Part shown: positions 5,192 to 32,739 of the stretch, piece by piece
Numbering within the stretch: the first letter of the stretch is position 1
Layout: every line of letters begins with the position of its first letter
NCBI GenBank assembly: GCA_028714535.1
Contig: JAQTME010000004.1
Location: forward strand, 7,319 to 71,318
Length of the DNA: 64,000 nt
Source: Candidatus Iainarchaeum sp.
GTDB lineage: Archaea; Micrarchaeota; Micrarchaeia; Anstonellales; Bilamarchaeaceae
Reading direction: 5' to 3'
The notes under the pieces: model-generated
Told to the model about the DNA's origin: nothing
What the model saw: the letters and a program-made list of their open reading frames with translations, nothing else
The model's database searches: none
Translations under genes and position numbers: made by a program

Positions 5192-5211
5192 CTTTAGTCA
5201 CCTCATGAAGA

Positions 5212-5373
5212 TCATGCTGTGAATCCTACTGGTGATTGAGCAAAACTCTTATTAATACCCGCCGCTCCGGCTCCGAGAACAAGTGCGCTCGCCGCTGCCG
5301 CTGTGAATGCCGCGGCGGCATTGTGCGCTCCAGTTTTCTTCCCGGCTGGGTTAACCATGCTCAAACATTTCAT
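5212..5373 (-). CDS. Small Ala/Gly-rich hydrophobic peptide, 53 aa, translationally coupled inside the large-protein operon
   Basis: Strong Shine-Dalgarno GGAGGTGGGAG 3 nt before ATG (MKCLSMVNPAGKKTGAHNAAAAFTAAAASALVLGAGAAGINKSFAQSPVGFTA). Stop lies 21 nt before the ATG of the 650-aa gene. Confidence 0.45.
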   Translation of the reverse strand: MKCLSMVNPAGKKTGAHNAAAAFTAAAASALVLGAGAAGINKSFAQSPVGFTA

Positions 5374-5410
5374 TACTCCCACCTCCTTCTGATATCCACC
5401 CATGTTAGCG

Positions 5411-18201: not shown

Positions 18202-20853
18202 ATGGAATGGCATGCGGTCCCGCAGGAAAGCGCCATGAAGCGCCTGGGCGCCGCAGAGGGCGGGCTTAGCGCCGAAGAGGCGGCGAAGCGGCTGGGGGAG
18301 CACGGCCCGAACAGCATAGCGATAGAGCGGAAAATCTCCGCGCTGCACATCTTCGTCAGCCAGTTCAAGAACCTCCTCATAGTGCTCCTGCTGCTCGCCG
18401 CGCTCGTCTCGCTCGGGCTCAGCTTCATCAACCCGGAGGAGGCCGAGCTGCTGGACGCGCTGCTGATTTTCGCCATAGTCATCGCCAACGCGGTGCTTGG
18501 CTTCGCGCAGGAATACAAGGCCGAGAAGTCCATAGAGGCGCTCACCAGGATGGCGGCGCCGCTGGCATCGGTCATGCGCGGCGGCAGGGAAGTCGAAATC
18601 CGTTCCGAGGATGTCGTGCCAGGCGACATCCTGCTCCTGCTCGAGGGCGACAAGGTCGCCGCCGACGCAAGGCTCATCGAATGCTTCTCCATATACGCGG
18701 ACGAGTCCATGCTCACCGGCGAGAGCGTGCCGGCGCACAAGTCCCCGGGAGTGCTTCCGAAGGAAACGCCGCTGGCAGAAAGGGACAACATGGTGTACAT
18801 GAACTCGGTGATAACCCGCGGCAAGGGCACGGCCGTCGTTGTCCACACCGGGCTGAAGACCGAGATGGGGAAGATAGCCAAGGAGATATCCGAGGCGCCC
18901 GAGAAGGTCACGCAGTTCCAGCTGGAGATAGGGGACATAAGCAAGAAGGTGTCGATACTGGTCGTCGTCATGCTGGTGATAATCTCCGTCACAGAATTCC
19001 TCATGCGCACCGGCGACCTGCTCTTCATATTCATGGCCGCAGTGGCCCTTGGCGTCGCCGCAATCCCGGAAGGCCTTCCGGCGGTCGTCACCCTCGCGCT
19101 CTCCATAGCGACCAACCGCATGCTCAGGCAGAACGCGCTCATGAGGCGGCTCTCCACCATACAGGACCTGGGCTCGGTCAACGTCATCTGCACTGACAAG
19201 ACAGGCACCCTGACCGAGAACGTGATGACCGTCACGAAGATGTGCTTCGACGGCAGGCACGTGGAGGTCGGCGGCCGGGGCCTGGACCTGCACGGCAGCT
19301 TCGTCCCGCAGCCCGAGCGCAACGAGTTCGAGATGCTCCTGCTCTGCGGCGTGCTCTGCAACGACGCGCGGCAGGTGGAAACGGACGGGGCCATGAAATT
19401 CAAGGGCGACCCGACCGAGATCGCGGTCCTCATCCCGGCATACAAGGCAGGCCTTGACGTGGACGGCCTGCGCAGGCGATGGAAGCGCGTGGGCGAGGTT
19501 CCGTTCTCATCGGAGCGCAAGCTCATGTCCACTGCGAACAGCGACGGCAGGCGCACATACACATTCGTGAAGGGCGCGCCGGAGGTGCTCCTCTCGCGCT
19601 GCACCCACATCAACGAGCGCGGCACGCCCAGGGAGATGACCGGGAAGGACAGGAAGGAGGTGCTGGAGCACAACCGCGCGCTCGCATCGCACGCCCTGCG
19701 CGTCCTCGGCTTCGCGTACAAGGAAAGCCCCGCGTCCATGGACGAAACGGAAATGGAGAACGGGCTGGTCTTCCTCGGCCTGATGGGCATGAAGGACCCG
19801 CCCAGGGCTGGCGTGAAAGAAGCCGTAGAAGACTGCAGGAAGGCCGGCATACGCGTGATTATGATAACCGGCGACAACCGCTACACCGCCGAGGCCGTGG
19901 GCCGCGAGCTGGGCTTCTCCGGCGCCGCGGTGACCGGCGACGAACTGGACAAACTGTCGGAGGCGCAGTTCGCCAAGGCCGTGGAAAAAACGGACATCTA
20001 CGCGCGCACGTCCCCGAAGCACAAGGTCCAGCTGCTCAGGGCCCTGCAGGCCAACGGCCACATAGTGTGCATGACAGGCGACGGCGTCAACGACGCCGCG
20101 GCCATAAAGAACTCCGACGTCGGAATCGCCATGGGCATACGCGGAACCGAGGTCACCAAGCAGGCCAGCGACATAATCGTGCTGGACGACAACTTCATCA
20201 CCATCCGCAACGCCATAGCAGAGGGCCGGGGCACGTTCGACAACATCCGCAAGTTCGTGGCATACATGCTCGGCGCGAACATATCAGAGGTGCTCATAGT
20301 GTTCATCGCGACAGTGGCCGCGCTCGGCATATCGCCGAAAATCGCCATACAGCTGTTGTGGATAAACCTCGTGACCGACGGCGTCCCAGCGGTCGCCATG
20401 GGCGTGGACCCGCCGGCGAAGGGCATCATGCAGCGGCCGCCCAGGAAAAAGGGCGAGCGCATGGCTGACACGGACACGATGTACTTCCTGGGCTCCATCG
20501 GATTTGCGGCCACGGTTGCGCTCCTGCTGCTCTACGCCTTCTACATGGGCGCCGAGGGCGCGATGAAGGCCTATTCCATACTGTTCACGTCGTTCGTGGT
20601 CCTGGAGATGCTCACTGTATACGCGGTCCGCTGGAGGTACGGCACGGACATCCTCTCCAACATCTGGCTCCACGCCGCGGTCGCCTCGTCGCTCATCCTC
20701 CAGCTCGCGCTGCTCTATACCCCGCTCAACTCGCTTTTCGGCATAGTGCCGCTCTCGCTGCAGGACTGGGCCGGCATAACAGCCGCCATGGCGGGCTACC
20801 TCGCGCTCGTGGCTGCCGCGCTCAGGCTGGAGCCGCTGGTAATAAGGAAATAA
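18202..20853 (+). CDS. P-type ATPase, type IIA (Ca2+-transporting-like)
   Basis: DKTGTLT phosphorylation motif, TGDN, MTGDGVNDAAAIK, about 10 TM segments. Confidence 0.85.
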   Translation: MEWHAVPQESAMKRLGAAEGGLSAEEAAKRLGEHGPNSIAIERKISALHIFVSQFKNLLIVLLLLAALVSLGLSFINPEEAELLDALLIFAIVIANAVLGFAQEYKAEKSIEALTRMAAPLASVMRGGREVEIRSEDVVPGDILLLLEGDKVAADARLIECFSIYADESMLTGESVPAHKSPGVLPKETPLAERDNMVYMNSVITRGKGTAVVVHTGLKTEMGKIAKEISEAPEKVTQFQLEIGDISKKVSILVVVMLVIISVTEFLMRTGDLLFIFMAAVALGVAAIPEGLPAVVTLALSIATNRMLRQNALMRRLSTIQDLGSVNVICTDKTGTLTENVMTVTKMCFDGRHVEVGGRGLDLHGSFVPQPERNEFEMLLLCGVLCNDARQVETDGAMKFKGDPTEIAVLIPAYKAGLDVDGLRRRWKRVGEVPFSSERKLMSTANSDGRRTYTFVKGAPEVLLSRCTHINERGTPREMTGKDRKEVLEHNRALASHALRVLGFAYKESPASMDETEMENGLVFLGLMGMKDPPRAGVKEAVEDCRKAGIRVIMITGDNRYTAEAVGRELGFSGAAVTGDELDKLSEAQFAKAVEKTDIYARTSPKHKVQLLRALQANGHIVCMTGDGVNDAAAIKNSDVGIAMGIRGTEVTKQASDIIVLDDNFITIRNAIAEGRGTFDNIRKFVAYMLGANISEVLIVFIATVAALGISPKIAIQLLWINLVTDGVPAVAMGVDPPAKGIMQRPPRKKGERMADTDTMYFLGSIGFAATVALLLLYAFYMGAEGAMKAYSILFTSFVVLEMLTVYAVRWRYGTDILSNIWLHAAVASSLILQLALLYTPLNSLFGIVPLSLQDWAGITAAMAGYLALVAAALRLEPLVIRK

Positions 20854-20894: not shown

Positions 20895-21674
20895 ATGGTT
20901 GCCATGCGCCGACAACCTCCAAAACGCAAAGCCAAGCAGCCGCGCCGGAAGCCGCCGAAGCCCGAAGCGAACCGGCAAACCGAGCGGGTGTCGACCGGCA
21001 TCCCGGGCCTCGACGCGCTCATAGAGGGCGGGTTCGTGAGGAACAGCACGGTCCTGGTGCGCGGCGACACGGGGACCGCGAAGACGCTTTTCTGCATCCA
21101 GTACCTCTACGAGGGCGCCCTGGCAGGCGAGCCGGGCGTGTTCATAAGCTTCGCGGAATCCCGCGAGGCCATATACGAGCATGGCAGGAAATTCGGCTGG
21201 GACCTGGACGCCCTGGCGAGGAAGGGCCTGTTCGAGGTCATACGCTACGACCCGCACGAAGTCGTCAAGATAATGCAGGAGGGCGGCGGCCTCATTAGGG
21301 ACACCATCGAGTCGAAGGCGGCTAAGCGGCTGGCCATAGACTCGCTGAGCGCCTACGAGCTGTTTTTCGAGAACAAGTACAAGTCCAACCAGTCCGTCCT
21401 GAGCCTTTTCGAGCTGCTGAAGAAATGGAATGTCACGGCCATGGTGACGTCGGAGATGCCAGTGAGCCTGACAAACGAGACAAGGGACCGGCTCGGCTTC
21501 CTGACCGAGGGCATACTGAACCTCTACCACCTGAGGAGCCACGCAGAACGCCTCCGCGCCCTGGAGATACTCAAGATGAGGGACACCAACCACAATGAGG
21601 GGCTGTACCATTTCACGATTGAAAAAACAGGCCTGAGGGTGCGCGGGAGGCTGAGCGGCTTTGGCAGGGAGTAG
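20895..21674 (+). CDS. KaiC/RecA-superfamily ATPase, ArlH(FlaH)-like, with Lys/Arg/Pro-rich N-terminal tail
   Basis: GIPGLDALIEGGFVRNSTVLVRGDTGTAKT Walker A. Overlaps the start of the downstream vWA prepilin by 14 nt. Confidence 0.7.
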   Translation: MVAMRRQPPKRKAKQPRRKPPKPEANRQTERVSTGIPGLDALIEGGFVRNSTVLVRGDTGTAKTLFCIQYLYEGALAGEPGVFISFAESREAIYEHGRKFGWDLDALARKGLFEVIRYDPHEVVKIMQEGGGLIRDTIESKAAKRLAIDSLSAYELFFENKYKSNQSVLSLFELLKKWNVTAMVTSEMPVSLTNETRDRLGFLTEGILNLYHLRSHAERLRALEILKMRDTNHNEGLYHFTIEKTGLRVRGRLSGFGRE

Positions 21675-23904
21675 GGCGGCCCAGGCGAGCACAGAGTTCA
21701 TCTTCATCCTAGCGATATCGATGGTCGTCATAACCATAATCATGGTCCTGGCGCAGCAGCAGATAACCACAGTGCAGAAGCAGAAGGACTCAGCAGACGC
21801 GCAGAACGCGGTCCTGGACCTGAGCGCGGCGGCCAAGGAGGTCTATGCCCAGGGCGAGGGGTCAAGGAAGCAGGTGTTCATACGGCTGCCGGGCAGCTAC
21901 GAGCCGGGCGGCTCGTCCATAGGCGCCCGGTCCATACAGATACGGGCGGCCGGCACGGATTACGTGGCAGTGGAGAACTTCAACCTGCGCGGCTACCTGC
22001 CCGCCACCTCCGGAGGCCACTGGGTGTGGGTCACGTCCGAGGGCAGCAGGGTGCGCATAGGGCTCGCGATGATGGAACTCGACAGGAACCGCATATACCT
22101 GGTCATGAACAGGAACACCACTGCGACGGCGCCGTTCTCAGTGACCAACGCGTGGATACGCAGCATAAACGTTACGACCGCGGTGCGGTGGGATGCAACC
22201 GACGTCACAATGGACGGCGTGCCGTCCGGGTTCCAGCTCAACGTCGACAGCAGCAATATGATAACCGCGCATTTCACCGCAGGCGCAGATGCCGGCGGCA
22301 TCTACATGGGCGAGATAGAGCTGAATGCGAGCGACGGCCAGGGGGCAACCGAAAGCGCCGAAGTGCCGGTGACCGTCTACGTCGTCGGCTACACTGCGCC
22401 TGAAAAGGACCTCCTGGGCCCGGTGATAACGGCCATCTACCAGGACCCCGCTCCAGCCATAGTATACGAGCCTCTGGCGATAATACTGACCGCGACAGAC
22501 GAGCAGGCCGGCAACAACAGCATCAGGGACTGCGAGATGGACGCAGACCAGGCCGGAAACTGGCAGGTGATACTGCCCGTGGACGGCGCCTACGATCAGC
22601 CCACCGAAACCGCCATGCACAATTACACGGCCGGGTTCTCCTGGGGCGTGCACAGCATCCGGGCGCGGTGCACCGACGTCATGAACAACACCGGGCCGAC
22701 GGCATTCTATTACTTCAACGTGACCCAGTCAGACATGCTCGGGCCTATCGTGACGAACCTGACGCACACCGAATATCCGACGACCCTGTCTAACATCACC
22801 GCGAGCGCCATAGCGACGGACGTATACACGGGCGGCAGCAACATCGCGAGCTGCCAGGTGAAGGTCGATACCGGCGCATGGCACAACGCCACCCCTATGG
22901 ACGGGCTGTACGACTCCCCTTCGGAGAACGTCAGCTATAACGCAGGCCAGCTGGCGCCCGGCTACCATACCATATACTGGCAGTGCGTGGACGTCCTGGG
23001 CAACGCCGGCGGCACCTACAACGACAGCTTCGGCGTCGTGGACGTGGACCTCATGCTCGTCCTGGACCAGTCCTACTCCATGGACGCGTTCGTGACCAGC
23101 TCGTCGAGCTCCACGGTCGTCGAGACGACCAACACCGGGTTCACGCGCCTGAAGAACATAACGATACCGGCCAAGAACGGCAACCTGGCCAACCTCTCCA
23201 CCGAGATAAAGGCAGACGTCAGCGGGTGCACGGCCTACTACGAGGCGAGGATAAACGGCGTGGTGGTGGCAAGCGGCAACCGCACGTCCACCAGCTACGG
23301 CACCATCGCCGCCAGCATAAACGTATCGCAGTTCACTGCGCCGTTCGACGTCGCGCTCTACATGAAGCGCAGCCCGACCGCGAACTGCAAGGTCAGCAAC
23401 CAGCTGCTCTCGCTCCAGCAGGCGCCCAAGAAGATAACCGCCTCGCAGGATGCGGCAAAGACGTTCCTCAACGCCATAGACTCGTCCAACCAGGCCGGGC
23501 TGGTCACCTTCAGCGCCTCTGCGACCCTGAGCAAGCAGCTCGCCGCGATGACCGAGGCGAACAAGACGGCGCTCAAGGCCGCGATAGACGTGGTAAGCTA
23601 CGGCTTCAGCACCTGCCTGGAGTGCGGGCTGAAGACAGGCGCGGACGAGCTGACGTCCGCCAGGGGCAGGCCCGCAGCCACCAGGGTCATCGTGATGCTC
23701 ACGGACGGAATGAGCAACTCCGGCGACCCGGTCGCCGGCGCGGTCTACTGCAGGGACCGCGACGTGACCGTCTACACGATCGGGTTCGGCAACGACGTGA
23801 ACGACACCGAGCTGACCAACATCGCCCTGCTCACCCACGGCGAATACTACTTCGCGCCGAATGCGGAGACGCTCATGGACATATTCATGAACATAGGCAA
23901 GTGA
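21661..23904 (+). CDS. Giant prepilin-like protein, 747 aa: class III signal peptide-like N-terminus plus C-terminal von Willebrand factor A domain (TadG/PilY1-like tip adhesin candidate)
   Basis: N-terminus ...RAAQASTEFIFILAISMVVITIIMVLA. vWA with MIDAS DxSxS (LVLDQSYSMD), ...LVTFSASA..., VMLTDGMSNSGD, VYTIGFGND. Confidence 0.65.
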   Translation: MAGSRAAQASTEFIFILAISMVVITIIMVLAQQQITTVQKQKDSADAQNAVLDLSAAAKEVYAQGEGSRKQVFIRLPGSYEPGGSSIGARSIQIRAAGTDYVAVENFNLRGYLPATSGGHWVWVTSEGSRVRIGLAMMELDRNRIYLVMNRNTTATAPFSVTNAWIRSINVTTAVRWDATDVTMDGVPSGFQLNVDSSNMITAHFTAGADAGGIYMGEIELNASDGQGATESAEVPVTVYVVGYTAPEKDLLGPVITAIYQDPAPAIVYEPLAIILTATDEQAGNNSIRDCEMDADQAGNWQVILPVDGAYDQPTETAMHNYTAGFSWGVHSIRARCTDVMNNTGPTAFYYFNVTQSDMLGPIVTNLTHTEYPTTLSNITASAIATDVYTGGSNIASCQVKVDTGAWHNATPMDGLYDSPSENVSYNAGQLAPGYHTIYWQCVDVLGNAGGTYNDSFGVVDVDLMLVLDQSYSMDAFVTSSSSSTVVETTNTGFTRLKNITIPAKNGNLANLSTEIKADVSGCTAYYEARINGVVVASGNRTSTSYGTIAASINVSQFTAPFDVALYMKRSPTANCKVSNQLLSLQQAPKKITASQDAAKTFLNAIDSSNQAGLVTFSASATLSKQLAAMTEANKTALKAAIDVVSYGFSTCLECGLKTGADELTSARGRPAATRVIVMLTDGMSNSGDPVAGAVYCRDRDVTVYTIGFGNDVNDTELTNIALLTHGEYYFAPNAETLMDIFMNIGK

Positions 23905-23909
23905 GCGCC

Positions 23910-24293
23910 ATGAAAGCCCAGATCTCATCCGAATTCATGGTCGTATTCTCGGCCCTGGTCCTGATATTCGTGGTCGTGTTCACCCTGTACTCGGGCGGCA
24001 GCCTCAACCTCTTCCAGGCAGAGGGCTCTGTCGCGGCCATGCGCAACGCGAACGCGGTCGCGGCCGCGCTGAACTACGCCTACCTGGCAGGCGACGGCGC
24101 CAGCTACTCGTTCACGCCCGCGAGGGTGGCGAGCGACGAGAACATAACCATATCCGACTACGCCGTCTCGTCGGAGCGGCCGCACGCCTATGCCGCGGCG
24201 CCGCTGCTCGACGGCAGCATAAACGCCAGCTCGATAGGCCGTGGGCCTGTGCTCATAACCAACAACGGAGGGGAACTCGATATCAGCGGCTGA
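23910..24293 (+). CDS. Minor prepilin-like protein (class III signal peptide), 127 aa
   Basis: MKAQISSEFMVVFSALVLIFVVVF: KxQ-xSxEF plus hydrophobic stretch, same architecture as the major pilins. Confidence 0.6.
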   Translation: MKAQISSEFMVVFSALVLIFVVVFTLYSGGSLNLFQAEGSVAAMRNANAVAAALNYAYLAGDGASYSFTPARVASDENITISDYAVSSERPHAYAAAPLLDGSINASSIGRGPVLITNNGGELDISG

Positions 24294-24312
24294 CCCAGGC
24301 AGAAGAGGAGCC

Positions 24313-24867
24313 TTGGCGACTGATGCGGGATGCCGCACAAAGCGGCAGGGCCCCGCATCCCGATTCCACAAGGGCCAGGTCTGGTCGCTGGATTTCACCA
24401 TGGGCCTGCTGGCGCTGCTGTTCGTGCTGGCGCTCTTCATGCTCCTGTGGAACAGCATCGCGATGAGGTGGAACTCCGCGGGGAGCCAGGCCTCGATGGA
24501 GGCGAGCGCGTTCTTCGCCTCGGAATCCCTGCTGGCCACGCCCGGCGAGCCAGAGGGCTGGGAGATGCTCCCGCACATAGACGCCAACGTGAGCGCGCTC
24601 GGCCTCGTCAACGGCCGCAACGAGCTGAACAGGATGAAGCTCGACAAGCTCGTGGCAGAGAATGCGACCGCCTATTCCACGATAAAGGCGCGGCTCGGGC
24701 TGCAGCGCTACGAGCTCGGCATGCGCATCACGGACCTTTCCGACAACGTGATATACTACGAGTTCGGCAAGTTCAGCGGCACGCTGAACAACTCGCTGAA
24801 GTTCGAGCGCTTCGGCATACTGGACGGCGCGCCGGTGCTGGTGCACATGGAGGTGTGGGGCGGATGA
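24313..24867 (+). CDS. Minor prepilin-like protein (class III signal peptide-like KGQVWSLDF + TM); true start may be internal
   Basis: ...RFHKGQVWSLDFTMGLLALLFVLALFMLLW. Stop overlaps the next start (ATGA). Confidence 0.5.
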   Translation: MATDAGCRTKRQGPASRFHKGQVWSLDFTMGLLALLFVLALFMLLWNSIAMRWNSAGSQASMEASAFFASESLLATPGEPEGWEMLPHIDANVSALGLVNGRNELNRMKLDKLVAENATAYSTIKARLGLQRYELGMRITDLSDNVIYYEFGKFSGTLNNSLKFERFGILDGAPVLVHMEVWGG

Positions 24868-25271
24868 GGGGGTTCGCAATCACGCTGGACGCGGTCATAG
24901 CGCTGTCGTTCTTCCTGTTCGCGATGCTGCTGATGTCGGGCCAGACATACCAGCCCATGGCCCCGGGCAGCATCTACCTGAAGCAGCTGACCCTGGACAC
25001 GCTGGCCGTGCTGGAGAAGACCGGCAGGCTCGGCCGGGCGCTTGACGGCAACAACAGCGGGGTGGAGGAGGTGCTCGAGGCGACGCCGAAGCTGGCGTGC
25101 ATCCAGCTCTCCATACTGGACAGCGAAGGGAACCCCGCCGCCGTGCTCGCCAAAAACGACTGCAACGAGACAGGCGGCCTGGACATGCAGGTCGTATCGA
25201 GGCCGGTGCTGCACAACGGCATCATGTACGTCGTGAGGTCAGAGTCCTGGCTCAGGAAGGAGCCGGAGTGA
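24864..25271 (+). CDS. Minor prepilin-like protein, 135 aa
   Basis: MRGFAITLDAVIALSFFLFAMLLM. Start ATG at 24864 overlaps the previous stop. Confidence 0.6.
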   Translation: MRGFAITLDAVIALSFFLFAMLLMSGQTYQPMAPGSIYLKQLTLDTLAVLEKTGRLGRALDGNNSGVEEVLEATPKLACIQLSILDSEGNPAAVLAKNDCNETGGLDMQVVSRPVLHNGIMYVVRSESWLRKEPE

Positions 25272-25428
25272 AAATCATGCACAGGAGGAAAATTTCAGCC
25301 GCTGGTTTGTCTAGGTTCAGCCTAATGAAGTTTTATGATGGCAAGGAGCGCAGCGCGCTCCTTGACTGTCGTGGAATGCATGGCATTCCACTCCAAATTT
25401 TATCAGAAGTAACCAGGAGGAAAATTTC

Positions 25429-26259
25429 ATGCGTGGATTCGTGATAACCCTGCTGTCGGTGAGCCTCATACTGGTGCTCGTGGTGCTCACCATGTCGCTG
25501 CGCAGCGCGCACCTGGGCACCGAAAGGGCGCTGCTGGAGCCGCTGCCGCTGCTATACGCGGCGTTCCTGCTGGACGACGCGGCCTACGAGTTCAACTCCA
25601 TCGTCGGCCCTTCCATGTCGTTCAGCCAGGGGAACGGCAGCATGAACGTCACCGTCGCGGACACGCTGCACGCGGCCAACCATTCCGCCGCGGTCCTGGC
25701 CTACGGCACGTTCCTCGAAAGCGAGGTCGCCGGCAGGACCTCCAGCAACATAACCACGAACCTGAGCAACATAAGCGGCGGGGCCATGAGGGTCTTCATA
25801 AACGAGGATTACGTGTATCTGAACAACCACAGCAGCGGCGAGGTGCTATTCACCCGGGCCGGCGGCACCAACGCCACGTCGTACGAAATCAACTTCACCG
25901 TATACAGCATCAGGCAGAACATCACGCATATGGATTTCAACTCCAGCGGCACGCTCAACGTCACCATACGCTACACGGACCTGAACGGCACCGGCACAGA
26001 GCAGGGCAGCGTGTTCCCGGGCCAGGCCAACCAGTTCGTCGTCGGATACCCCAACGGGACCAGCATGGCCGTGACCGTCGGGCTGGCCGGGGGCGAGCCG
26101 GGCTCGCTCAGGATGGAGGGGGGCGGCGCATACGCTGATTTCGCATGGACGGCCGCCCTGCCGCGGCTCGACCCGTCGAAAAGGCGCGGCTACGCGTACG
26201 ACGCCACCATCGAATACGTGCAGGGGGCCGTGGCGAAGCGCACGCGGTTCGGCAAATAG
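25429..26259 (+). CDS. Prepilin-like protein, 276 aa
   Basis: MRGFVITLLSVSLILVLVVLTMSL. AGGAGG RBS 8 nt upstream. N-x-S/T-rich extracellular part. Confidence 0.6.
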   Translation: MRGFVITLLSVSLILVLVVLTMSLRSAHLGTERALLEPLPLLYAAFLLDDAAYEFNSIVGPSMSFSQGNGSMNVTVADTLHAANHSAAVLAYGTFLESEVAGRTSSNITTNLSNISGGAMRVFINEDYVYLNNHSSGEVLFTRAGGTNATSYEINFTVYSIRQNITHMDFNSSGTLNVTIRYTDLNGTGTEQGSVFPGQANQFVVGYPNGTSMAVTVGLAGGEPGSLRMEGGGAYADFAWTAALPRLDPSKRRGYAYDATIEYVQGAVAKRTRFGK

Positions 26260-26274
26260 GCGGCTGCCGCGCGC

Positions 26275-26784
26275 CTAGGATTCGCCTGCCTTTTTCAGGA
26301 CATTGGCCAGCGTGTTCAGCCGCGCATCCTTTATCCCAACATACAACGGGTGCAGCAGGTAGAGGGTCGCGGCCGCTACGATTCCCCAGCCATAGCTCTC
26401 TGGTATGGCAGGGGCAACGTTCAATCCCATGATGGACGCATCGTACAATGCCATGGTGAGCAATACGCCAGCCCCCGCCAGGACGGACGCGAACGCATGT
26501 GCAATCATGGCCTTGTGCATCTTATTTACTGTGGAAATGGCTTTTTGCAGCAGGCCCTGCTCTTGACCGAACTGCTCCTTCACGTGCTCCATCTTTTTGC
26601 GCATGATGTTTTCCAGGATGCCGCTGCCAAGGGTCCCGAAGGGCTTCTTCCCGCTGCGCCTGAGCGCGATGGCGATATCCATTGCATCCACGAGCGGCTG
26701 CCCCGCCTTCGTGCTCCAATCTTTTCTGCCCGTATCGACTTTGCCTAGAACCTGCCCGACTACGCGCCTCGTCATGAATCCCAT
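26275..26784 (-). CDS. Hypothetical membrane protein (2 C-terminal TM helices), encoded antisense between the two pilus operons
   Basis: Protein-like composition. TATA-like TTTATAAGTATAT about 30-45 nt upstream. Confidence 0.45.
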   Translation of the reverse strand: MGFMTRRVVGQVLGKVDTGRKDWSTKAGQPLVDAMDIAIALRRSGKKPFGTLGSGILENIMRKKMEHVKEQFGQEQGLLQKAISTVNKMHKAMIAHAFASVLAGAGVLLTMALYDASIMGLNVAPAIPESYGWGIVAAATLYLLHPLYVGIKDARLNTLANVLKKAGES

Positions 26785-26933
26785 GTTATCATCCCCTGGC
26801 AGTTCTGTGTGTGATAATGTTTATAAGTATATGCAACTGTGACTGCTGCGCGGGCGCCCCAGCCGCATAATCCCTGCGTTTGCGCACCAGCGGCTACAAT
26901 TAATTTTTAAACAACGCAGGAGATGGGTTTGAC

Positions 26934-28664
26934 ATGGCCATAGAAACGAAGATAGACGACATGGTCCGGTTCATCCAGCAGAAGGGGAAGGCGAACTTCA
27001 GGGACATCGCCAGGAACCTCTCATGGAGCGAGCAGGCAGTGGAGAAGGTCGCGCTCATACTGGAGAAGGCGGGCATGGCGAAGACGCACTATCCCCTGAA
27101 CATGGTGGAGCGCCCGTGGATGTCCATCATCGCGGTGCAGCCGGCCAAGGAGCGCGTGCAGGCGCCAGGGAAGCAGCTTGACGCCTACGGCATCGCGGTC
27201 AAGGGCCACGTGCTCGGCTCGGTCACCATAGTGGATTCCGAAGCCGAGAAGAGGCCGGTATATAATATACTGCTGCCCGAGGCCACCCCCTACACCCGCG
27301 CATACCTGGAGCACCTCAAGGAGGACGTCTCCAGGAAGCTGGCTGTGGCAGAAGAGGAGAAGGGGACCGAGGACGTGGATAAGAACTTCCTCATCAGGCA
27401 CGAGGCCATATCCGGGGCTATCGCCAAGGACCTGGGCCCGGACGACAAGACGCTGGACACGCTCACGGACATAACCCTGCACGAGATGTACGGCCTCGGC
27501 GAGCTGGAGGCTCTCATAGGCGACACGAACCTGGAGGAGATAGTCATAAACTCGGCCGCGGTGCCGGTCGCGGTCTACAGCAGGAAGCGCGGCTGGCTCA
27601 AGACCAACGTCACCATGGCCAGCGAGTCGGACATCGAGAACTACGCCCAGCAGATAGCGCGCAAGGTTGGCAGGCAGATAAGCACGCTCAACCCGGTGCT
27701 GGACGCGCACCTGGGGACCGGCGACCGCGTCAACGCGACGCTCTACCCGATATCGTCGCACGGCAACACCATCACGCTGCGCCTTTTCGCGCGCAACCCC
27801 TGGACCATAGTGAGCTTCATAAAGCCCGAGGTCAACGCGATGACGCCGGACATGGCCGCGCTGCTCTGGCAGGCCATGCAGTACGAGATGAACGTGCTGG
27901 TGGCCGGGGGCACGGCGAGCGGGAAGACGAGCGCGCTCAACGGCCTCGTCGCGCTGGTCCAGCCGTTCCAGAGGATACTCACCATAGAGGACACCCGCGA
28001 GCTCATGCTGCCGACCTACCAGTGGAACTGGATACCGATGATAACGAGGCTGCCCAACCCCGAGGGCCTGGGCGAGGTGACAATGCTCGACCTGCTCGTG
28101 AACGCGCTGAGGATGAGGCCGGACCGCATAGTCATGGGCGAGATACGGCGGAAGCGCGAGGCGGAGGTCCTGTTCGAGGCCATGCACACGGGCCACAGCG
28201 TATACTCCACCATGCACGCGGACACCGGCGCGCAGGTGCTCAAGCGGCTCGTCGAGCCGCCCATAGAGGTCCCGGCCGCCGAGGTCGAGGACCTCCACCT
28301 GGTCCTGGTGCAGTTCAGGGACAGGCGCAAGAACGTGCGGCGCACGCTCGAATTGTCCGAGGTCGTCTCCGGCGCGTCAGGGCCGGAGCTCAACCACCTC
28401 TACAGCTGGAAGGCGAGGAGCGACACGTTCCAGCTCCTCAGGCCGCCGCACCGCTACCTTGAGGAGCTCAACCTCCACACCGGGCTCACCGAGAGCGAGG
28501 CGCTGGAGGACCAGAAGGGCAAGGCAGCCATACTCACATGGATGGAAAAGAACAGGCTGGAGAACATAGAGGACGTGGGCAGGGTCATGAAGATATACTA
28601 CTCGGACCCGGACTCGATAACGCAGGCGGCGGAGAAGGGCACCGCGCCGTCAAAGGTGCTTTGA
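26934..28664 (+). CDS. Type II/IV secretion-system ATPase (TadA/FlaI/PilB-like pilus assembly ATPase) with ~130-aa N-terminal extension
   Basis: Walker A VLVAGGTASGKTSALNGL, Asp/His boxes, Walker B. TATA-like AATTTTTAAA about 25 nt upstream. Confidence 0.85.
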   Translation: MAIETKIDDMVRFIQQKGKANFRDIARNLSWSEQAVEKVALILEKAGMAKTHYPLNMVERPWMSIIAVQPAKERVQAPGKQLDAYGIAVKGHVLGSVTIVDSEAEKRPVYNILLPEATPYTRAYLEHLKEDVSRKLAVAEEEKGTEDVDKNFLIRHEAISGAIAKDLGPDDKTLDTLTDITLHEMYGLGELEALIGDTNLEEIVINSAAVPVAVYSRKRGWLKTNVTMASESDIENYAQQIARKVGRQISTLNPVLDAHLGTGDRVNATLYPISSHGNTITLRLFARNPWTIVSFIKPEVNAMTPDMAALLWQAMQYEMNVLVAGGTASGKTSALNGLVALVQPFQRILTIEDTRELMLPTYQWNWIPMITRLPNPEGLGEVTMLDLLVNALRMRPDRIVMGEIRRKREAEVLFEAMHTGHSVYSTMHADTGAQVLKRLVEPPIEVPAAEVEDLHLVLVQFRDRRKNVRRTLELSEVVSGASGPELNHLYSWKARSDTFQLLRPPHRYLEELNLHTGLTESEALEDQKGKAAILTWMEKNRLENIEDVGRVMKIYYSDPDSITQAAEKGTAPSKVL

Positions 28665-28673
28665 GGTTTCGAA

Positions 28674-29570
28674 ATGGCCGAGGACAAGATACTGCTCATG
28701 CTCGTCTCGCAGCGCCGGATGTTCCAGCTCGGGCGGAGGTTCCGCGGGCTGGGGCGGCTGCTGGGCGCGGCCAACCCGCGCATGGGCTCCATACTCGCCA
28801 AGCTGAAGCTCGACCTGGAGCCCGAGGGCTATGCCATGGGCGCGTTCGCCTCCGGCCTGGCGTACGGCCTGATGTTCTTCCTCCTCGCGGCCGCGGTGCT
28901 GTGGGTGCGCTACCACGACACGGCCAAGATGTGGCCGGAGTCGCTCGCCATCGGCCTGCTGGTCTGGCTCATCACGTTCATGTTCCTCATGATGTACCCG
29001 GGCATCATGATGAGGAAGATCGCGGCCAAGGAGAGCAACGACCTGCTCTTCGCCCTGCGCGAGATGATGGTGGACATAGACGGCGGCGTGCCGCTTTTCG
29101 ACTCCATGAAGAACGTCGCGTCCGGCGACTACGGCTACGTCTCCAGGGACCTGGGGACCGTGGTCAAGCAGATAGAGCGCGGCATCCCGGACCGCATGGC
29201 GCTCAGGGAGCTTGCCGTGCGCACCGAAAGCGAGCTGATGAAGCGCTCGCTCTGGCAGATGGTCAACGCGCTGGAAAGCGGCGCCAGCCTGGGCACTGCG
29301 CTCAGCGCCATAGTCCAGTCCATAGAGAGCTACATGTACCGGGACATAAAGAACTACTCGTCCAACCTCAATTTCCTCATGCTGATATACATGCTGGCGG
29401 CCACGGTGGTGCCGTCGCTGGGCATAACGTTCCTCGTGCTGCTCTCGGCCTTCAGCGGGCTGGGGGTCAGCTTCACCACGCTCCTGCTGCTGCTCGGCAT
29501 CTCGGTGCTGGCGCAGGCGATAATGATAGGGTACATGCATTCGACGAGGCCCGAGACGTTCGGGGGATGA
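28674..29570 (+). CDS. TadC/FlaJ-like (GspF-family) polytopic membrane platform protein 1
   Basis: Several TM helices flanking cytoplasmic helical domain. Immediately follows the ATPase. Confidence 0.7.
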   Translation: MAEDKILLMLVSQRRMFQLGRRFRGLGRLLGAANPRMGSILAKLKLDLEPEGYAMGAFASGLAYGLMFFLLAAAVLWVRYHDTAKMWPESLAIGLLVWLITFMFLMMYPGIMMRKIAAKESNDLLFALREMMVDIDGGVPLFDSMKNVASGDYGYVSRDLGTVVKQIERGIPDRMALRELAVRTESELMKRSLWQMVNALESGASLGTALSAIVQSIESYMYRDIKNYSSNLNFLMLIYMLAATVVPSLGITFLVLLSAFSGLGVSFTTLLLLLGISVLAQAIMIGYMHSTRPETFGG

Positions 29571-29573
29571 CCG

Positions 29574-30884
29574 ATGAAGAAGGGTACAAGGCCGCGGAAG
29601 GGCGTTGCGCCGGAGCCGGCAGCCCGGCCCAGGGCGCGGCCCGCCCCCTATGCCCCGCCGCCGGCCGCCGAGCTGGAGCTGACTGACTGGCCCGCCCCTT
29701 CGCCCAAGTCCATGGCGCCCAAGCCGCCTGTGCCCGCTGCCAATGCCCCTGCGCGCCCGCTCTCCGGCGGCCTGCTCCATTCCCTGTTCTCAAGGCAGAA
29801 GCCGGTCCCCCCTCCGGCCGCCCAGAAGCCCGCAGCCCCGAAGCCCGCACCGCAGAAGAAGGCGCCAGGCGAGCCTGGCATGTGGCGCATCTACCGCAGG
29901 TTCAGCAGCGTGCTGCCGGCCTCGATGACGACCGGCCTGGAGCGGAAGATGCGCTTCGCTGGCATAGACCCGGGCATGAACACCATCCTGCTTGGCCGGA
30001 CGCTGATGGTGTGCTTCCTCTCGGGCATGCTGCCCCTGATGCTCTACCTCGCGGTGCTCAACCCGCTCGCCACGCCTACCACGACGCTCACCGCAATCGC
30101 GCTCTTCCTGGGCGGCTCTGTCGCCTCGCTCATACTGTCATATCTCTGGCTGTACTTCACGGTGGTCGACCGCGCGGCCATGGTGGAGCGGCTCCTGCCC
30201 GACTTCCTCTCGCTCGCGGTCTCCAACCTCAGGGCCGGCATGACGCCCTACGTGGCGTTCGTCCATGCGGCGCGGCCGGAGTTCGGCGCCTTCCACGACT
30301 CGGTCATGCTGTCCATGGCGAGGATGGGCGGCAAGGTGTCCATCGCGGACGCGCTCGTATATGTCTCAGGCGACTTCGACTCCGGCATCCTGCGCAGGAC
30401 CGTGACCCTGTTCGCCAAGGGCGTGCGCTCGGGCGGCCAGCTCGTGAGGCTCCTCAACTCCAGCGCCGAGGAGGTCCGCCGCATCCACGACCTGCGGGCG
30501 GAGCTCATCTCGTCCACGCGCACCTACTCGATATTCCTGGCGTTCATAGTCGTCGCCATCATGCCGTTCCTGCTGTCCGTGTCGCTGAATTTCGTCACGG
30601 TGTTCGTGAGCCTCCAGGTCGATACCAGCGGCATGGACGTGGGGGCGGCCGCGCTGCCCAGCTTCACGGGCAAGATACTCATCACCGCGGACGACATGTA
30701 CAACATCTCGCTGATAACCCTGGTGGTCATAGACCTGCTGGTCTCGATACTCATGGGCATCGTGGACAGGGGCAAGGCCATATACGGCATAAAGAACTTC
30801 CCGGCGCTCCTCGCCCTTTCCCTGCTCTCGTTCTTCATCGCCAAGGCCATAATCGGCTCCTTCCTGGCCGGCTTCATGGTATGA
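29574..30884 (+). CDS. TadB/TadC/FlaJ-like membrane platform protein 2 with ~100-aa Pro/Ala-rich N-terminal low-complexity extension
   Basis: N-terminus PEPAARPRARPAPYAPPPAAE...KPAAPKPAPQKKAP, then TadC-like TM/cytoplasmic-domain architecture. Two platform genes, as in EpdJ/EpdK or TadB/TadC. Confidence 0.65.
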   Translation: MKKGTRPRKGVAPEPAARPRARPAPYAPPPAAELELTDWPAPSPKSMAPKPPVPAANAPARPLSGGLLHSLFSRQKPVPPPAAQKPAAPKPAPQKKAPGEPGMWRIYRRFSSVLPASMTTGLERKMRFAGIDPGMNTILLGRTLMVCFLSGMLPLMLYLAVLNPLATPTTTLTAIALFLGGSVASLILSYLWLYFTVVDRAAMVERLLPDFLSLAVSNLRAGMTPYVAFVHAARPEFGAFHDSVMLSMARMGGKVSIADALVYVSGDFDSGILRRTVTLFAKGVRSGGQLVRLLNSSAEEVRRIHDLRAELISSTRTYSIFLAFIVVAIMPFLLSVSLNFVTVFVSLQVDTSGMDVGAAALPSFTGKILITADDMYNISLITLVVIDLLVSILMGIVDRGKAIYGIKNFPALLALSLLSFFIAKAIIGSFLAGFMV

Positions 30885-30910
30885 TGCCGCCGGCCCGGCG
30901 GCATGGCAAA

Positions 30911-30923
30911 TCTTTTTAAACTA
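30911..30923 (+). promoter_or_regulatory. Pilin promoter box ATCTTTTTAAACT (copy 1); same motif at 31461-31473 for copy 2
   Basis: Conserved 10-13-mer at an equivalent distance upstream of both pilin ATGs. Confidence 0.55.
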
Positions 30924-30950
30924 GCCGGAGATTGCACTACGGTGAAATTA

Positions 30951-31406
30951 ATGATTAAGAAAGGACAAGTTTCGACAGAATATCTGGTCATATTGGCCAT
31001 AGTCCTCGTCGTTGCCCTCGTGGTCGTCTACCTGGTAGGCGGCTTCGCCGGCATGGGCGTAGGAACCATGGAAACCCAGAGCATGCAGGCATGGGGCACC
31101 GCGGCACCGCTCGCAATGACGAGCTGGAAGCAGAGCGGCACCTCGTTGCAGCTCGAGATTCAGAACAACGACGTAGACACGCTGGTCCTCACGGCTGTAT
31201 CCATGGACGGCGCATCGGTCGGCTTAGCGGCCAATACGACGTTCACGAGCGGCGAGAAGAAGGTAATCACTGTGACGACCGCGACAACCTGCGGCGCTGC
31301 AGGCACTGCGTTCACACACGAGAACGTGGTGCTCACCTACAACAAGGGCCAGATAACCGGCAAGACGCAGACCGGCGTGAGGCCCATTGTAGGCAAGTGC
31401 TCCTGA
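30951..31406 (+). CDS. Major pilin (class III signal peptide; Epd/Flp-like), copy 1
   Basis: MIKKGQVSTEYLVILAIVLVVALVVVYL. Conserved promoter box ATCTTTTTAAACT about 30 nt upstream. Followed by T-rich terminator. Confidence 0.75.
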   Translation: MIKKGQVSTEYLVILAIVLVVALVVVYLVGGFAGMGVGTMETQSMQAWGTAAPLAMTSWKQSGTSLQLEIQNNDVDTLVLTAVSMDGASVGLAANTTFTSGEKKVITVTTATTCGAAGTAFTHENVVLTYNKGQITGKTQTGVRPIVGKCS

Positions 31407-31450
31407 ATCCGGTTTTTTTTATTTTATATTCTTTTTTCCCTTTTCCAGCC
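31407..31450 (+). terminator. T-rich archaeal terminator after pilin copy 1
   Basis: TTTTTTTTATTTTATATTCTTTTTTCCCTTTTCC. Confidence 0.55.
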
Positions 31451-31504
31451 CTGGCTGCATATCTTTTTAACCTGCGGCTAGCTTATCTTCATTGAGGGAG
31501 TCAT

Positions 31505-31954
31505 ATGTCAAAAGGACAGGTTTCAACGGAATATCTGGTCATACTGGCCATCGTCCTCGTCGTTGCCCTTGTGGTCGTCTACCTGGTAGGCGGCTTCGCC
31601 GGCATGGGCGCAGGGACCATGGAGACCCAGAGCATGCAGGCCTGGGGCACGGCGGCGCCGTTCGCCATCACCATCCTGAAGCAGAGCGGCACGACGCTGG
31701 AGCTGGAGATGAGGAATAACGACGTCAGCACCCTGGTCCTCACTGACATATCCATGGACGGCGCGTCCGTGTTCTCCTCGAACACCACGTTCACCAGCGG
31801 CGAGAAGAAGGTCGTGACCGCGACCGTGGTCACCGCATGCGGCGCTGCCGGCAGCGACTTCAGCCATCAGAACGTGATAATGACCTACAACAAGGGCCAG
31901 ATAACCGGCAAGACCCAGGTCGGCGCAAGGCCGCTCATGGGCAAGTGCTCCTGA
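31505..31954 (+). CDS. Major pilin (class III signal peptide), copy 2, tandem paralog of copy 1
   Basis: MSKGQVSTEYLVILAIVLVVALVVVYL. First ~110 nt nearly identical to copy 1 at the DNA level. Own promoter ATCTTTTTAACCT and SD GAGGGAG. Followed by hairpin GGGAGAA..TTCTCCC plus T-run. Confidence 0.75.
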   Translation: MSKGQVSTEYLVILAIVLVVALVVVYLVGGFAGMGAGTMETQSMQAWGTAAPFAITILKQSGTTLELEMRNNDVSTLVLTDISMDGASVFSSNTTFTSGEKKVVTATVVTACGAAGSDFSHQNVIMTYNKGQITGKTQVGARPLMGKCS

Positions 31955-32019: not shown

Positions 32020-32661
32020 ATGCATGACGAAGACAGTCCAAAGCAGAAGGGGGTTCAGACAGGGACCACTACGGTGGGCCTCGTCTGCAAGGACGGCATC
32101 GTCCTGGCCAGCGACAGGAGGGCCACCATGGGCTACCTCATCGCCAGCAAGGACATAGACAAGATATATCCCATAAGCGACAACCTCGCGATGACCATAG
32201 CCGGCGGCGTGGGCGACGCCCAGACGCTCATCCGGTGGATGAACTCCGAGGTGAAGCTCTACGAGCTCAAGCACGAGAAGGCCATGAGCGTGGAGGCCGC
32301 GGCCGTCCTGCTTTCCAACATACTCGTACAATACAAGTACTACCCCTTCTACGTCCAGCTGCTGCTGGGCGGGGTGGACGAGAGGCCGAGGCTGTTCTCC
32401 ATCGACATGCTCGGCGGCATAACCGAGGAGAAGGTGACCTCGACCGGCAGCGGCTCCCCGGTCGCCTACGGCGTCCTCGAGGAGCTTTACGCGGAGGAGC
32501 GCGACATAGAGGCGAACCTGCCGGTGGCCGCCAAGGCAATCAGCGCGGCCATGAGGCGCGACGCGGCGACGGGCGAGAGGGTCGACCTGGTGACCGTCAC
32601 CAGGGCCGCCGGCTTCAAGAGATACGACAAGGAAGAAGTGAAGAAGATACTGCATTCCTGA
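32020..32661 (+). CDS. psmB: Proteasome subunit beta (with propeptide; Thr1 at G|TTTVG)
   Basis: GTTTVGLVCKDGIVLASDRRAT... canonical Ntn-hydrolase N-terminus. Confidence 0.9.
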   Translation: MHDEDSPKQKGVQTGTTTVGLVCKDGIVLASDRRATMGYLIASKDIDKIYPISDNLAMTIAGGVGDAQTLIRWMNSEVKLYELKHEKAMSVEAAAVLLSNILVQYKYYPFYVQLLLGGVDERPRLFSIDMLGGITEEKVTSTGSGSPVAYGVLEELYAEERDIEANLPVAAKAISAAMRRDAATGERVDLVTVTRAAGFKRYDKEEVKKILHS

Positions 32662-32739
32662 ATGTGAGCCAGCGTTTTTGTTTTTACCGGATTTACGGCT
32701 TTCGTTTTTCATCTCCCCATACTTACGCAATCCATCGAG

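Follow-up and report, generated by a model that had tools for sequence, protein, structure and literature searches.

Gene content of the locus

The window analysed here is a stretch of 64,000 nucleotides (64 kb) from Candidatus Iainarchaeum sp. (Micrarchaeota). Positions 20895-31954 of the window contain eleven genes on the + strand and one open reading frame (ORF) on the - strand, as found from ORF calls and from Pfam and NCBIfam matches. The + strand genes probably form two adjacent operons for the standard type IV pilus (T4P) of Micrarchaeota, an Epd-like adhesion pilus with a KaiC-family protein that would act on the machine. The features are as follows, with protein lengths in amino acids (aa).

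20895..21674, + strand: KaiC-family ATPase, a single-domain, PH0186-like RecA-type protein with a basic N-terminal tail (Pfam KaiC PF06745, 4e-53); first gene of the minor-pilin block
21661..23904, + strand: modular prepilin, 747 aa, minor pilin and tip candidate, with a class III signal peptide and a VWA domain (PF00092, 1e-19); TTG start
23910..24293, + strand: minor prepilin m1, 127 aa, signal KA↓QISSEF; orthologues in 49 loci
24313..24867, + strand: minor prepilin m2, 184 aa from a TTG start, signal KG↓QVWSLDF; orthologues in 55 loci
24864..25271, + strand: minor prepilin m3, 135 aa, signal RG↓FAITLDAV; orthologues in 50 loci
25429..26259, + strand: minor prepilin m4, 276 aa, signal RG↓FVITLLS; orthologues in 41 loci
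26275..26784, - strand: orphan ORF, 169 aa, between the two operons; no Pfam match
26934..28664, + strand: assembly ATPase of the PilB/ArlI/CpaF superfamily, 576 aa (T2SSE, 1e-32)
28674..29570, + strand: platform protein 1, half-size, TadB/TadC/ArlJ-like (T2SSF, 2e-13; weak ArlJ matches)
29574..30884, + strand: platform protein 2, half-size, TadC-like (T2SSF, 1e-7; weak ArlJ and UpsF matches)
30951..31406, + strand: major pilin PilA1, signal KG↓QVSTEYLVILA (PF04021, 27.7 bits against a cut-off of 23.7)
31505..31954, + strand: major pilin PilA2 (PF04021, 25.9 bits against a cut-off of 23.7)

The GC content of the window is ~60%, and the GC content at third codon positions (GC3) is 0.8-0.93 in genuine genes, so that coding frames can be told apart from the many spurious antisense ORFs. 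The genes named in the original prediction, a note made from the letters of this DNA alone, are all present on the + strand where it had placed them, and their GC3 of 0.83-0.93 backs the coding frames.

Relatives of the KaiC-like protein and of the 576-aa ATPase come almost entirely from metagenome-assembled genomes (MAGs) of Candidatus Micrarchaeota/Micrarchaeia. A few carry the labels Woesearchaeota, Nanoarchaeota or 'Methanosarcinales'. The 747-aa protein is already public, at 100% identity to the NCBI 'VWA domain-containing protein' P0121 of 'Candidatus ainarchaeum sp.', and the - strand ORF is likewise public at 100% identity, as 'hypothetical protein PHV13_02090' under the same organism name. 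For the KaiC-like protein, a search for exact matches in a contig index gave none.

The KaiC-like gene in the minor-pilin operon

Six homologues of the KaiC-like protein, from 91% down to 39% identity, were examined in their own contigs. At 91, 65, 59, and 49% identity, kaiC is directly followed by a large prepilin gene, four small genes, the gene for the 576-aa ATPase, two T2SSF genes, and pilins. The genes upstream of kaiC are different in all four contigs (an unannotated partial gene; UbiA and primase genes; argininosuccinate lyase; a second pilus system). Around the 42% homologue, no pilus genes are found in the 10 kb to either side. The 39% homologue, from a Nanoarchaeota MAG, is found just 3' of the T2SSF genes of another pilus locus.

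A scan based on the ATPase alignment, with one genome per species, gave 80 related loci, in which KaiC was sought with a local hidden Markov model search. Co-location was counted over the 53 loci that have at least 7 kb of upstream sequence. KaiC is co-located with the pilus genes in 35 of these 53. Of the 20 loci whose ATPase is at least 59% identical, 19 have KaiC 3.9-5.7 kb upstream in the same orientation. At 53-58% ATPase identity it is within the locus in all five cases, and at 43-52% in 11 of 28.

The order kaiC-big-m1-m2-m3-m4-atp-F1-F2-pilA(n), where big is the large prepilin, atp the assembly ATPase, and F1 and F2 the platform proteins, is found in ~30 independent Micrarchaeota genomes with differing flanking genes. 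In five loci (L040, L041, L065, L066, and L085) the minor-pilin block has been inverted or moved, and kaiC is still immediately 5' of the big prepilin gene and not beside the ATPase gene. The end of kaiC and the beginning of the big prepilin gene share 11-17 nt, both in the window and in six or more relatives. The 747-aa gene of the window opens with a TTG situated 14 nt within kaiC, and GGGAGG precedes this TTG by 11-16 nt. Co-conservation, differing upstream genes, block rearrangements, and gene overlap therefore place KaiC as a conserved member of the minor-pilin operon. The kaiC...pilA arrangement is the norm in Micrarchaeota, and a link between KaiC and T4P is already published (PMC4858521); the combination is not the unusual one that the original prediction took it to be.

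It could be argued that the KaiC-like gene is an unrelated neighbour belonging with the P-type ATPase gene upstream, since only 41 bp lie between the two genes and they are on the same strand. However, the 41-bp spacer contains an A/T-rich, TATA-like TTAAAAAA, plausibly a TATA box. The kaiC-prepilin pair is kept in L002, L003, and L004 although the upstream genes differ, kaiC is retained in all but one of the 20 close loci and in 35 of the whole set of 53, and it overlaps the prepilin start. The synteny data thus refute this reading, to which we give practically no credence.

Some related loci have further KaiC-family genes. Two different pilus systems, with ATPases of the 502-aa and 576-aa types, stand back to back in L004/L036 and L033 (loci 1-20 kb), with a KaiC-like gene between them. 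Four KaiC-family matches (134-274 bits) surround a single pilus locus in L083. L066 has one strong KaiC match (293 bits) and two weak ones (49 and 23 bits).

Identity and catalytic residues of the KaiC-like ATPase

The KaiC-like protein has 259 aa, with a single RecA/KaiC domain (~30-255) behind a variable basic N-terminal tail. Its score against Pfam PF06745 is 180.6 bits (cut-off 26.6; 4e-53) and its Walker A motif is GDTGTAKT, in agreement with the original call of a KaiC-like ATPase. The further description as ArlH-like does not hold. The family profile scores 338 bits on KaiC, 180 on PH0186, 150 on PH0284, and 123 on SSO2452 in the PDB, and 34.7 on FlaH/ArlH (4yds), which is about equal to its score on RadA. 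Of the NCBIfam models, ArlH reaches 18.4 bits (cut-off 215) and FlaH PRK06067 reaches 35.7 (cut-off 194). In the AlphaFold2 (AF2) model, with a predicted local distance difference test score (pLDDT) of 91.6, the closest fold is PH0186 (template modelling score, TM, 0.93; 34% identity). The KaiC CI domain follows at TM 0.82-0.89, and ArlH is not among the top 50 fold matches. On the basis of these profile scores, NCBIfam scores, and fold matches, the ATPase at 20895 is of the KaiC/PH0186 type and not an ArlH orthologue.

The protein is not a clock KaiC either. It is a single 259-aa domain instead of CI-CII, the KaiC equivalog model gives it 145 bits where 408 are required, and the positions aligned to the phosphosites S431/T432 are Gly/Phe. 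No Kai partner was matched by Pfam or NCBIfam among the kaiC-adjacent proteins of the conserved cluster (pilins and motor components). PH0186 and PH0284 of P. horikoshii and SSO2452 are like the protein in size and fold, and their PDB titles call them merely KaiC-like, RecA-superfamily or uncharacterized. The protein of the window differs from them in its basic N-terminal tail and in its P-loop, which is a GxxGxAKT variant.

K63 and T64 of Walker A, D149 of Walker B, and E88, one of the catalytic Glu residues, are invariant or nearly so in 121 homologues, and the protein is likely to bind ATP. Note that the Walker A motif has Ala for Gly before the Lys, as in 30 of the 121 homologues. Also, the first of the two catalytic Glu residues of KaiC is Ala in the window protein (this column has A in 55, E in 32, and S in 25 of 121). 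The rate of ATP hydrolysis is uncertain from these residues.

The true start of the gene is possibly the second ATG, at 20904, for the 91% orthologue starts with MRRQ. The N-terminal tail (20895-20990) is rich in Lys, Arg, and Pro, with 12 K+R in 34 residues; among homologues it is 12 to 45 residues long and usually basic. Such a composition might allow it to bind membrane or nucleic acid.

The 747-aa modular prepilin

The 747-aa protein had been described as prepilin-like with a C-terminal vWA domain carrying a metal-ion-dependent adhesion site (MIDAS). The VWA match (1e-19), the conserved MIDAS, and the class III signal bear this out. In its family the signal reads ..(A/G)Q↓(A/T/V)S-x-E(F/Y), followed by a transmembrane helix. 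The MIDAS residues D469, S471, S473, T651, and D682 are kept in 35-36 of 36 vWA-bearing homologues, and the protein has 18 N-glycosylation sequons. PF04021 is detected in four of 30 big prepilins.

A structure prediction, one of the checks proposed for this protein, was made with AF2 from 46 homologues (mean pLDDT 88). The model starts with a 54-residue N-terminal helix (11-64), as in type IV pilins. It is followed by two beta domains (69-140 and 145-242), two immunoglobulin (Ig)-like domains (255-355 and 363-460), and the vWA domain (462-747). A beta-sandwich of 114 residues (477-590) is inserted in the vWA domain directly after the DxSxS loop and before helix alpha-1. Foldseek matches of the model in the PDB are mostly generic Ig-repeat proteins at low TM. 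They are informative only for the modular vWA pilin PilB of S. sanguinis (7ba2) and the vWA protein ITIH1.

The pilin module corresponds to residues 1-244. Variants with RTX repeats match the 747-aa protein over this part alone, with ~50% identity, and another group of homologues matches residues 1 to ~470 and then diverges, which places the module boundaries at ~244 and 460-470. Among 30 genes located 3' of kaiC in related loci, 16 encode a vWA domain and three encode RTX repeats. These sharp boundaries and the vWA and RTX variants fit a conserved pilin "handle" that would carry exchangeable adhesin modules.

Minor prepilins and major pilins

Conserved class III signal peptides are found in all seven pilin-like genes (alignments with orthologues of up to 55 loci). 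The shared N-terminal pattern is a short charged stretch ending in (K/R)(G/A), then a hydrophobic helix of ~20 residues. By this pattern the small genes are identified as prepilins. The motif is (K/R)(A/G)Q↓xSxEF in m1, (K/R)GQ↓xWxxD followed by a transmembrane helix in m2, (K/R)G↓FxITLD in m3, and (K/R)G↓FVITxLS in m4, where the RGFVIT-x-LS N-terminus is invariant. The start of m3 overlaps the stop of m2 by 4 nt. No Pfam or NCBIfam family was matched by m1-m4, even at E up to 5. The m4 protein has no acidic residue at +5 or +6. The same is true of GspK, the capping minor pseudopilin of bacteria, and the likeness is an analogy.

The N-terminus of PilA, KG↓QVSTEYLVILA, is invariant across loci, with Gln at +1 and Glu at +5. 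PilA1 and PilA2 are 78% identical, and both are above the Pfam gathering score of PF04021 (Class_IIIsignal), which we take to be a family built from the EppA substrates of Methanococcus, where Gln is at +1. Pfam finds PF04021 in the pilins of L001 and L002 as well. The most likely start of PilA1 is 30951, not 30903. Positions 108 and 144 of mature PilA (~145 aa) hold its only two Cys in 37 of 39 orthologues (L007-L086). This C-terminal pair recalls the disulfide-bonded D-region of bacterial type IVa pilins. Thus, the four small prepilin-like genes and the two tandem major pilins of the original prediction are supported by signals conserved across orthologues and, for the major pilins, by PF04021.

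Assembly ATPase and platform proteins

The 576-aa ATPase scores 113 bits on T2SSE (cut-off 24.9). Its best NCBIfam match is FlaI (2e-73), with 248 bits and thus below the cut-off of 550, and in the PDB it matches 2oap (2e-64), FlaI (4e-49), and CpaF (8e-43). The two platform proteins, encoded by adjacent genes, score 50.9 and 32.4 bits on T2SSF (cut-off 25.2). Platform protein 1 is present in 82 of 87 loci and platform protein 2 in 78 of 87. A TadA/FlaI-like ATPase with two platform proteins is what had been predicted here, and the T2SSE (1e-32) and T2SSF (2e-13 and 1e-7) matches confirm it.

The ATPase has an extra N-terminal domain of ~95 aa (26934-27230) with conserved W31, E37, A40, L43, and E44. 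It gives weak, sub-threshold winged-helix matches to LysM, LrpA, and Sul12a (winged helix-turn-helix), with E of 0.005-0.014. Some distant homologues of the ATPase, in MAGs labelled Methanosarcinales or Woesearchaeota, align only from residue ~80. Another extension is found in platform protein 2, where ~100 N-terminal residues (29574-29880) are of low complexity and rich in Pro and Ala. It is shorter or absent in relatives (436 aa here, 341-404 aa in L001-L003).

The minus-strand ORF

The original prediction counted a divergent membrane protein, encoded on the - strand at 26275-26784, as part of the locus. No counterpart of this ORF is found in any of the 80 related loci, and in L001 and L002 just 29-30 bp separate m4 from the ATPase gene. 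Its GC3 is 0.70, against ~0.87 in its neighbours, and a collection of 5.8 billion proteins contains a single homologue, at 66% identity. Neither target-site duplications nor terminal repeats turned up when its surroundings were searched for repeats. It is a genuine gene, a lineage-specific orphan insertion at the operon boundary, and is unlikely to belong to the pilus system.

Search for a prepilin peptidase

An A24 peptidase was sought in three ways. A scan for the GxGDxK motif in the six-frame ORFs of the 64 kb window found none, and a screen by transmembrane-segment count together with Pfam, applied to the multi-spanning ORFs of the window, yielded an ArsP permease only. The same screen, applied to 10 kb on either side of the 80 related loci, yielded one transporter of the major facilitator superfamily only. 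In 'Ca. Mancarchaeum acidiphilum' Mia14 there is a single, unlinked FlaK-like prepilin peptidase, and arCOG02298 is listed for most DPANN genomes in a supplementary table of the same paper (PMC5498576). An unlinked A24 peptidase would accordingly be expected elsewhere in the genome.

Neighbouring genes

Downstream of the pilus locus are the genes for a proteasome beta subunit and aCPSF1 (window 32020-34644), and the proteasome gene adjoins the locus in L001 too. In L005 (5434-10825) the proteasome beta and aCPSF1 genes adjoin two KaiC-family genes without any pilus genes in between; the genome has its pilus locus (L052) at a distance of ~100 kb on the same contig. The direct upstream neighbour of the pilus locus is the P-type ATPase gene at 18202-20853. 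A paralogue is found at 43876-46434; both have DKTGT, and they are 31% identical over ~880 aa.

Three consecutive large ORFs with high GC3 occupy 533-9565 on the - strand, encoding 901 aa (533-3238), 650 aa (3239-5191), and 1384 aa (5411-9565). None of the three has a Pfam match at E 0.01. The 901-aa and 1384-aa ORFs have one predicted hydrophobic segment each, near the N-terminus. These may be surface or S-layer-type proteins, with the family unassigned.

Proposed pilus system and alternatives

We propose that operon 2 (the ATPase, two half-size TadC-like platform proteins, and two major pilins) would provide the motor and the filament subunits. An unlinked A24 prepilin peptidase would cleave the class III signal KG↓QVSTEY. 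The ATPase, as a hexamer on the split platform, would then extract pilins from the membrane and polymerise PilA1/PilA2. Operon 1 (kaiC-like gene, 747-aa prepilin, and m1-m4) would encode five minor pilins that prime assembly and end at the pilus tip, a location that we infer by analogy with PilVWX/FimU-PilY1, GspHIJK, and TadE/F/G. The large minor pilin would show a glycosylated Ig-like stalk and a metal-dependent (MIDAS) vWA adhesin. Swapping of its C-terminal module between lineages (vWA, RTX, and others) is what would be expected of a part that gives an obligate episymbiont its specificity for hosts or surfaces, and the adhesion pilus probably serves host contact.

We picture the KaiC-family protein as a RecA-type ring ATPase of one domain, made in translational coupling with the tip prepilin. 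Its hexamer would dock on the ATPase or platform, depending on ATP or phosphorylation, and license or modulate initiation; a role at this step is suggested by the tight coupling of its gene to the tip-pilin gene. It would act as ArlH does on ArlI, by analogy and without orthology. ArlH is known to form hexamers and to bind ArlI in a phosphorylation-dependent manner (background cited in PMC10983859). A more specific proposal, which we put forward tentatively as a possible and not yet probable one, is that the KaiC-type protein joins a non-rotary archaeal T4P in stoichiometric amounts, as its third component on the cytoplasmic side. It would be an independently recruited ArlH analogue, whose hexamer couples ATP or phosphorylation state to priming by the co-translated minor-pilin/tip complex, and it would be the exchangeable tip modules that decide which hosts Micrarchaeota and other DPANN episymbionts can use.

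Several points weigh against a KaiC-assisted adhesion pilus. The pilus is predicted from its genes, and processing of the prepilins is assumed, with no prepilin peptidase found in the 64 kb window or in the flanks of the 80 loci. About one third of the related loci, mostly distant ones, have no adjacent KaiC gene; KaiC may therefore be dispensable or supplied in trans. Ala in the GK[ST] motif, together with Ala for the first catalytic Glu, may mean that ATPase activity is weak. Moreover, CirA, a different KaiC-like protein in H. volcanii, affects arl transcript levels and was not shown to dock on the motor (PMC10983859).

The last observation leads to another explanation, in which the pilus is as proposed and the KaiC-like protein is a regulator of signalling or expression in the style of CirA or GvpD, not a part of the machine. 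KaiC-family ATPases have been proposed as regulators of archaeal T4P (PMC4858521), and CirA lowers arl transcript levels. The variable basic tail could bind nucleic acid or membrane, and an adjacent KaiC is missing from 1/3 of related loci. On the other hand, Pfam and NCBIfam find no DNA-binding domain in the protein, and no KaiB-like or other output partner is encoded at the locus. Besides, its gene heads the minor-pilin operon in ~30 genomes and shows translational coupling to a structural gene. Regulation of this kind is a serious alternative that we nevertheless consider doubtful. Given the operon structure and the lack of a DNA-binding domain, the machine-associated role of KaiC appears somewhat ahead.

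Improbable, in our judgement, is a short pseudopilus or uptake device, similar to type II secretion or competence systems, that would move proteins or DNA across the envelope. The five minor pilins, one without an acidic residue at +5/+6, recall the GspH-K and competence sets. DPANN cells rely on macromolecules taken up from outside, and for Mia14 it has been speculated that DNA is exchanged by T4P (PMC5498576). However, two tandem major pilin genes are very strongly conserved, the largest pilin carries adhesin-type modules (vWA with intact MIDAS, or RTX), and the cluster contains no genes for DNA binding or secreted substrates.

A degenerate or atypical archaellum with the KaiC-like protein as ArlH is hardly credible: the ATPase has FlaI as its best NCBIfam match, the platform proteins weakly match ArlJ models, and a KaiC-fold protein adjoins the locus as ArlH adjoins arlI, yet the archaellum models score far below their cut-offs (FlaI 248 against 550, ArlH 18 against 215), the ArlH structure 4yds scores no better than RadA, no scanned cluster protein matches archaellin or the ArlC/D/E/F/G/X families in Pfam or NCBIfam, the platform is split into two genes, and the pilins are in PF04021. 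The archaellum is thus rejected, and the locus encodes a pilus, as had been predicted.

Comparison with known systems

How the obligate episymbionts among DPANN recognise and attach to their hosts is largely unknown, and the cluster represents a phylum-wide pilus of Micrarchaeota. It offers a candidate host-binding determinant, the modular tip pilin with its conserved MIDAS and lineage-specific module swaps, and, in the KaiC-type ATPase whose translation is coupled to that of the pilin, a candidate for control. These should be useful for research on DPANN host attachment, though unsurprising to specialists. The general link between KaiC and T4P and the presence of T4P in Micrarchaeota are already published. 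The cluster is a variant of described archaeal pilus systems and not a new type of machine.

T4P loci of archaea with two tadC genes, at least five minor pilins, and tip adhesins were described by Makarova, Koonin and Albers in 2016, who found KaiC-family ATPases (arCOG01171, arCOG01174, and arCOG01175) to be strongly associated with T4P, putatively as regulators (PMC4858521). In common with the Epd-type (clade 1, Methanococcus maripaludis) and the related euryarchaeal clade 2 T4P, the locus has a PilB/ArlI-family ATPase, a pair of TadC-like genes, five or more class III minor pilins (one of them large and adhesin-like), and QxSxE major pilins (PF04021). The platform made of two half-size TadC/ArlJ-like proteins encoded in the locus is parallel to EpdJ/EpdK. 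The description as Epd-like is therefore sound for the pilin class (PF04021, Gln +1, Glu +5) and for the two TadC-like genes. The differences are as follows. The accessory ATPase of the clade 1 model is FleN/MinD, whereas the Micrarchaeota locus has a KaiC-type protein encoded by the first cistron of the minor-pilin operon. Tip adhesins of clade 1 have DUF2341, whereas a vWA or RTX modular pilin is found here. Major pilins of clade 1 are ~70 aa and often stand-alone, whereas those here are ~145 aa when mature and encoded within the locus. EppA is often in the locus in clade 1, whereas no peptidase is linked here.

In Micrarchaeota itself, Golyshina et al. reported in 2017 two T4P systems common to many genomes, in their study of Mia14 (PMC5498576). 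Mia14 belongs to the same phylum, and two back-to-back T4P systems are also seen in L004 and L036. That paper gives a gene-range annotation only, and no mention of the KaiC-like gene, the vWA modular pilin or the gene order was found in its main text or supplementary files. In the literature that was searched, no description was found of a fixed translational coupling between kaiC and a tip prepilin, of KaiC in place of FleN/MinD at a locus with PF04021-type pilins, or of an archaeal modular pilin with exchangeable vWA/RTX modules and a MIDAS-adjacent insert.

The archaellum protein ArlH shares with the KaiC-like protein a single RecA/KaiC-fold domain of ~230 aa, encoded together with a PilB/ArlI-family ATPase and a TadC-like platform. 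However, arlH lies between arlG and arlI, and the kaiC-like gene is coupled to the minor pilins. The bacterial Tad pilus shares only the ATPase and the T2SSF proteins, as members of the same superfamilies. No cluster protein matches the TadE, TadG, Flp or secretin families in Pfam. TadG is a bacterial precedent for the vWA domain (PMC4858521).

Modular vWA pilins are established in bacteria, where PilB of S. sanguinis (PMC8179133, 7ba2) has, like the 747-aa protein, a class III signal and a pilin module followed by a C-terminal vWA/MIDAS domain as the adhesin. The likeness is one of architecture, for the 747-aa protein is of the archaeal, Epd-like pilin lineage. Unlike S. sanguinis PilB, TadG, and PilY1, it has two Ig-like spacer domains and the 114-residue insert after DxSxS. 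Its relatives bear RTX or unknown modules on the same pilin module. The Micrarchaeota protein thus adds an archaeal case to the "modular pilin" principle of S. sanguinis PilB.

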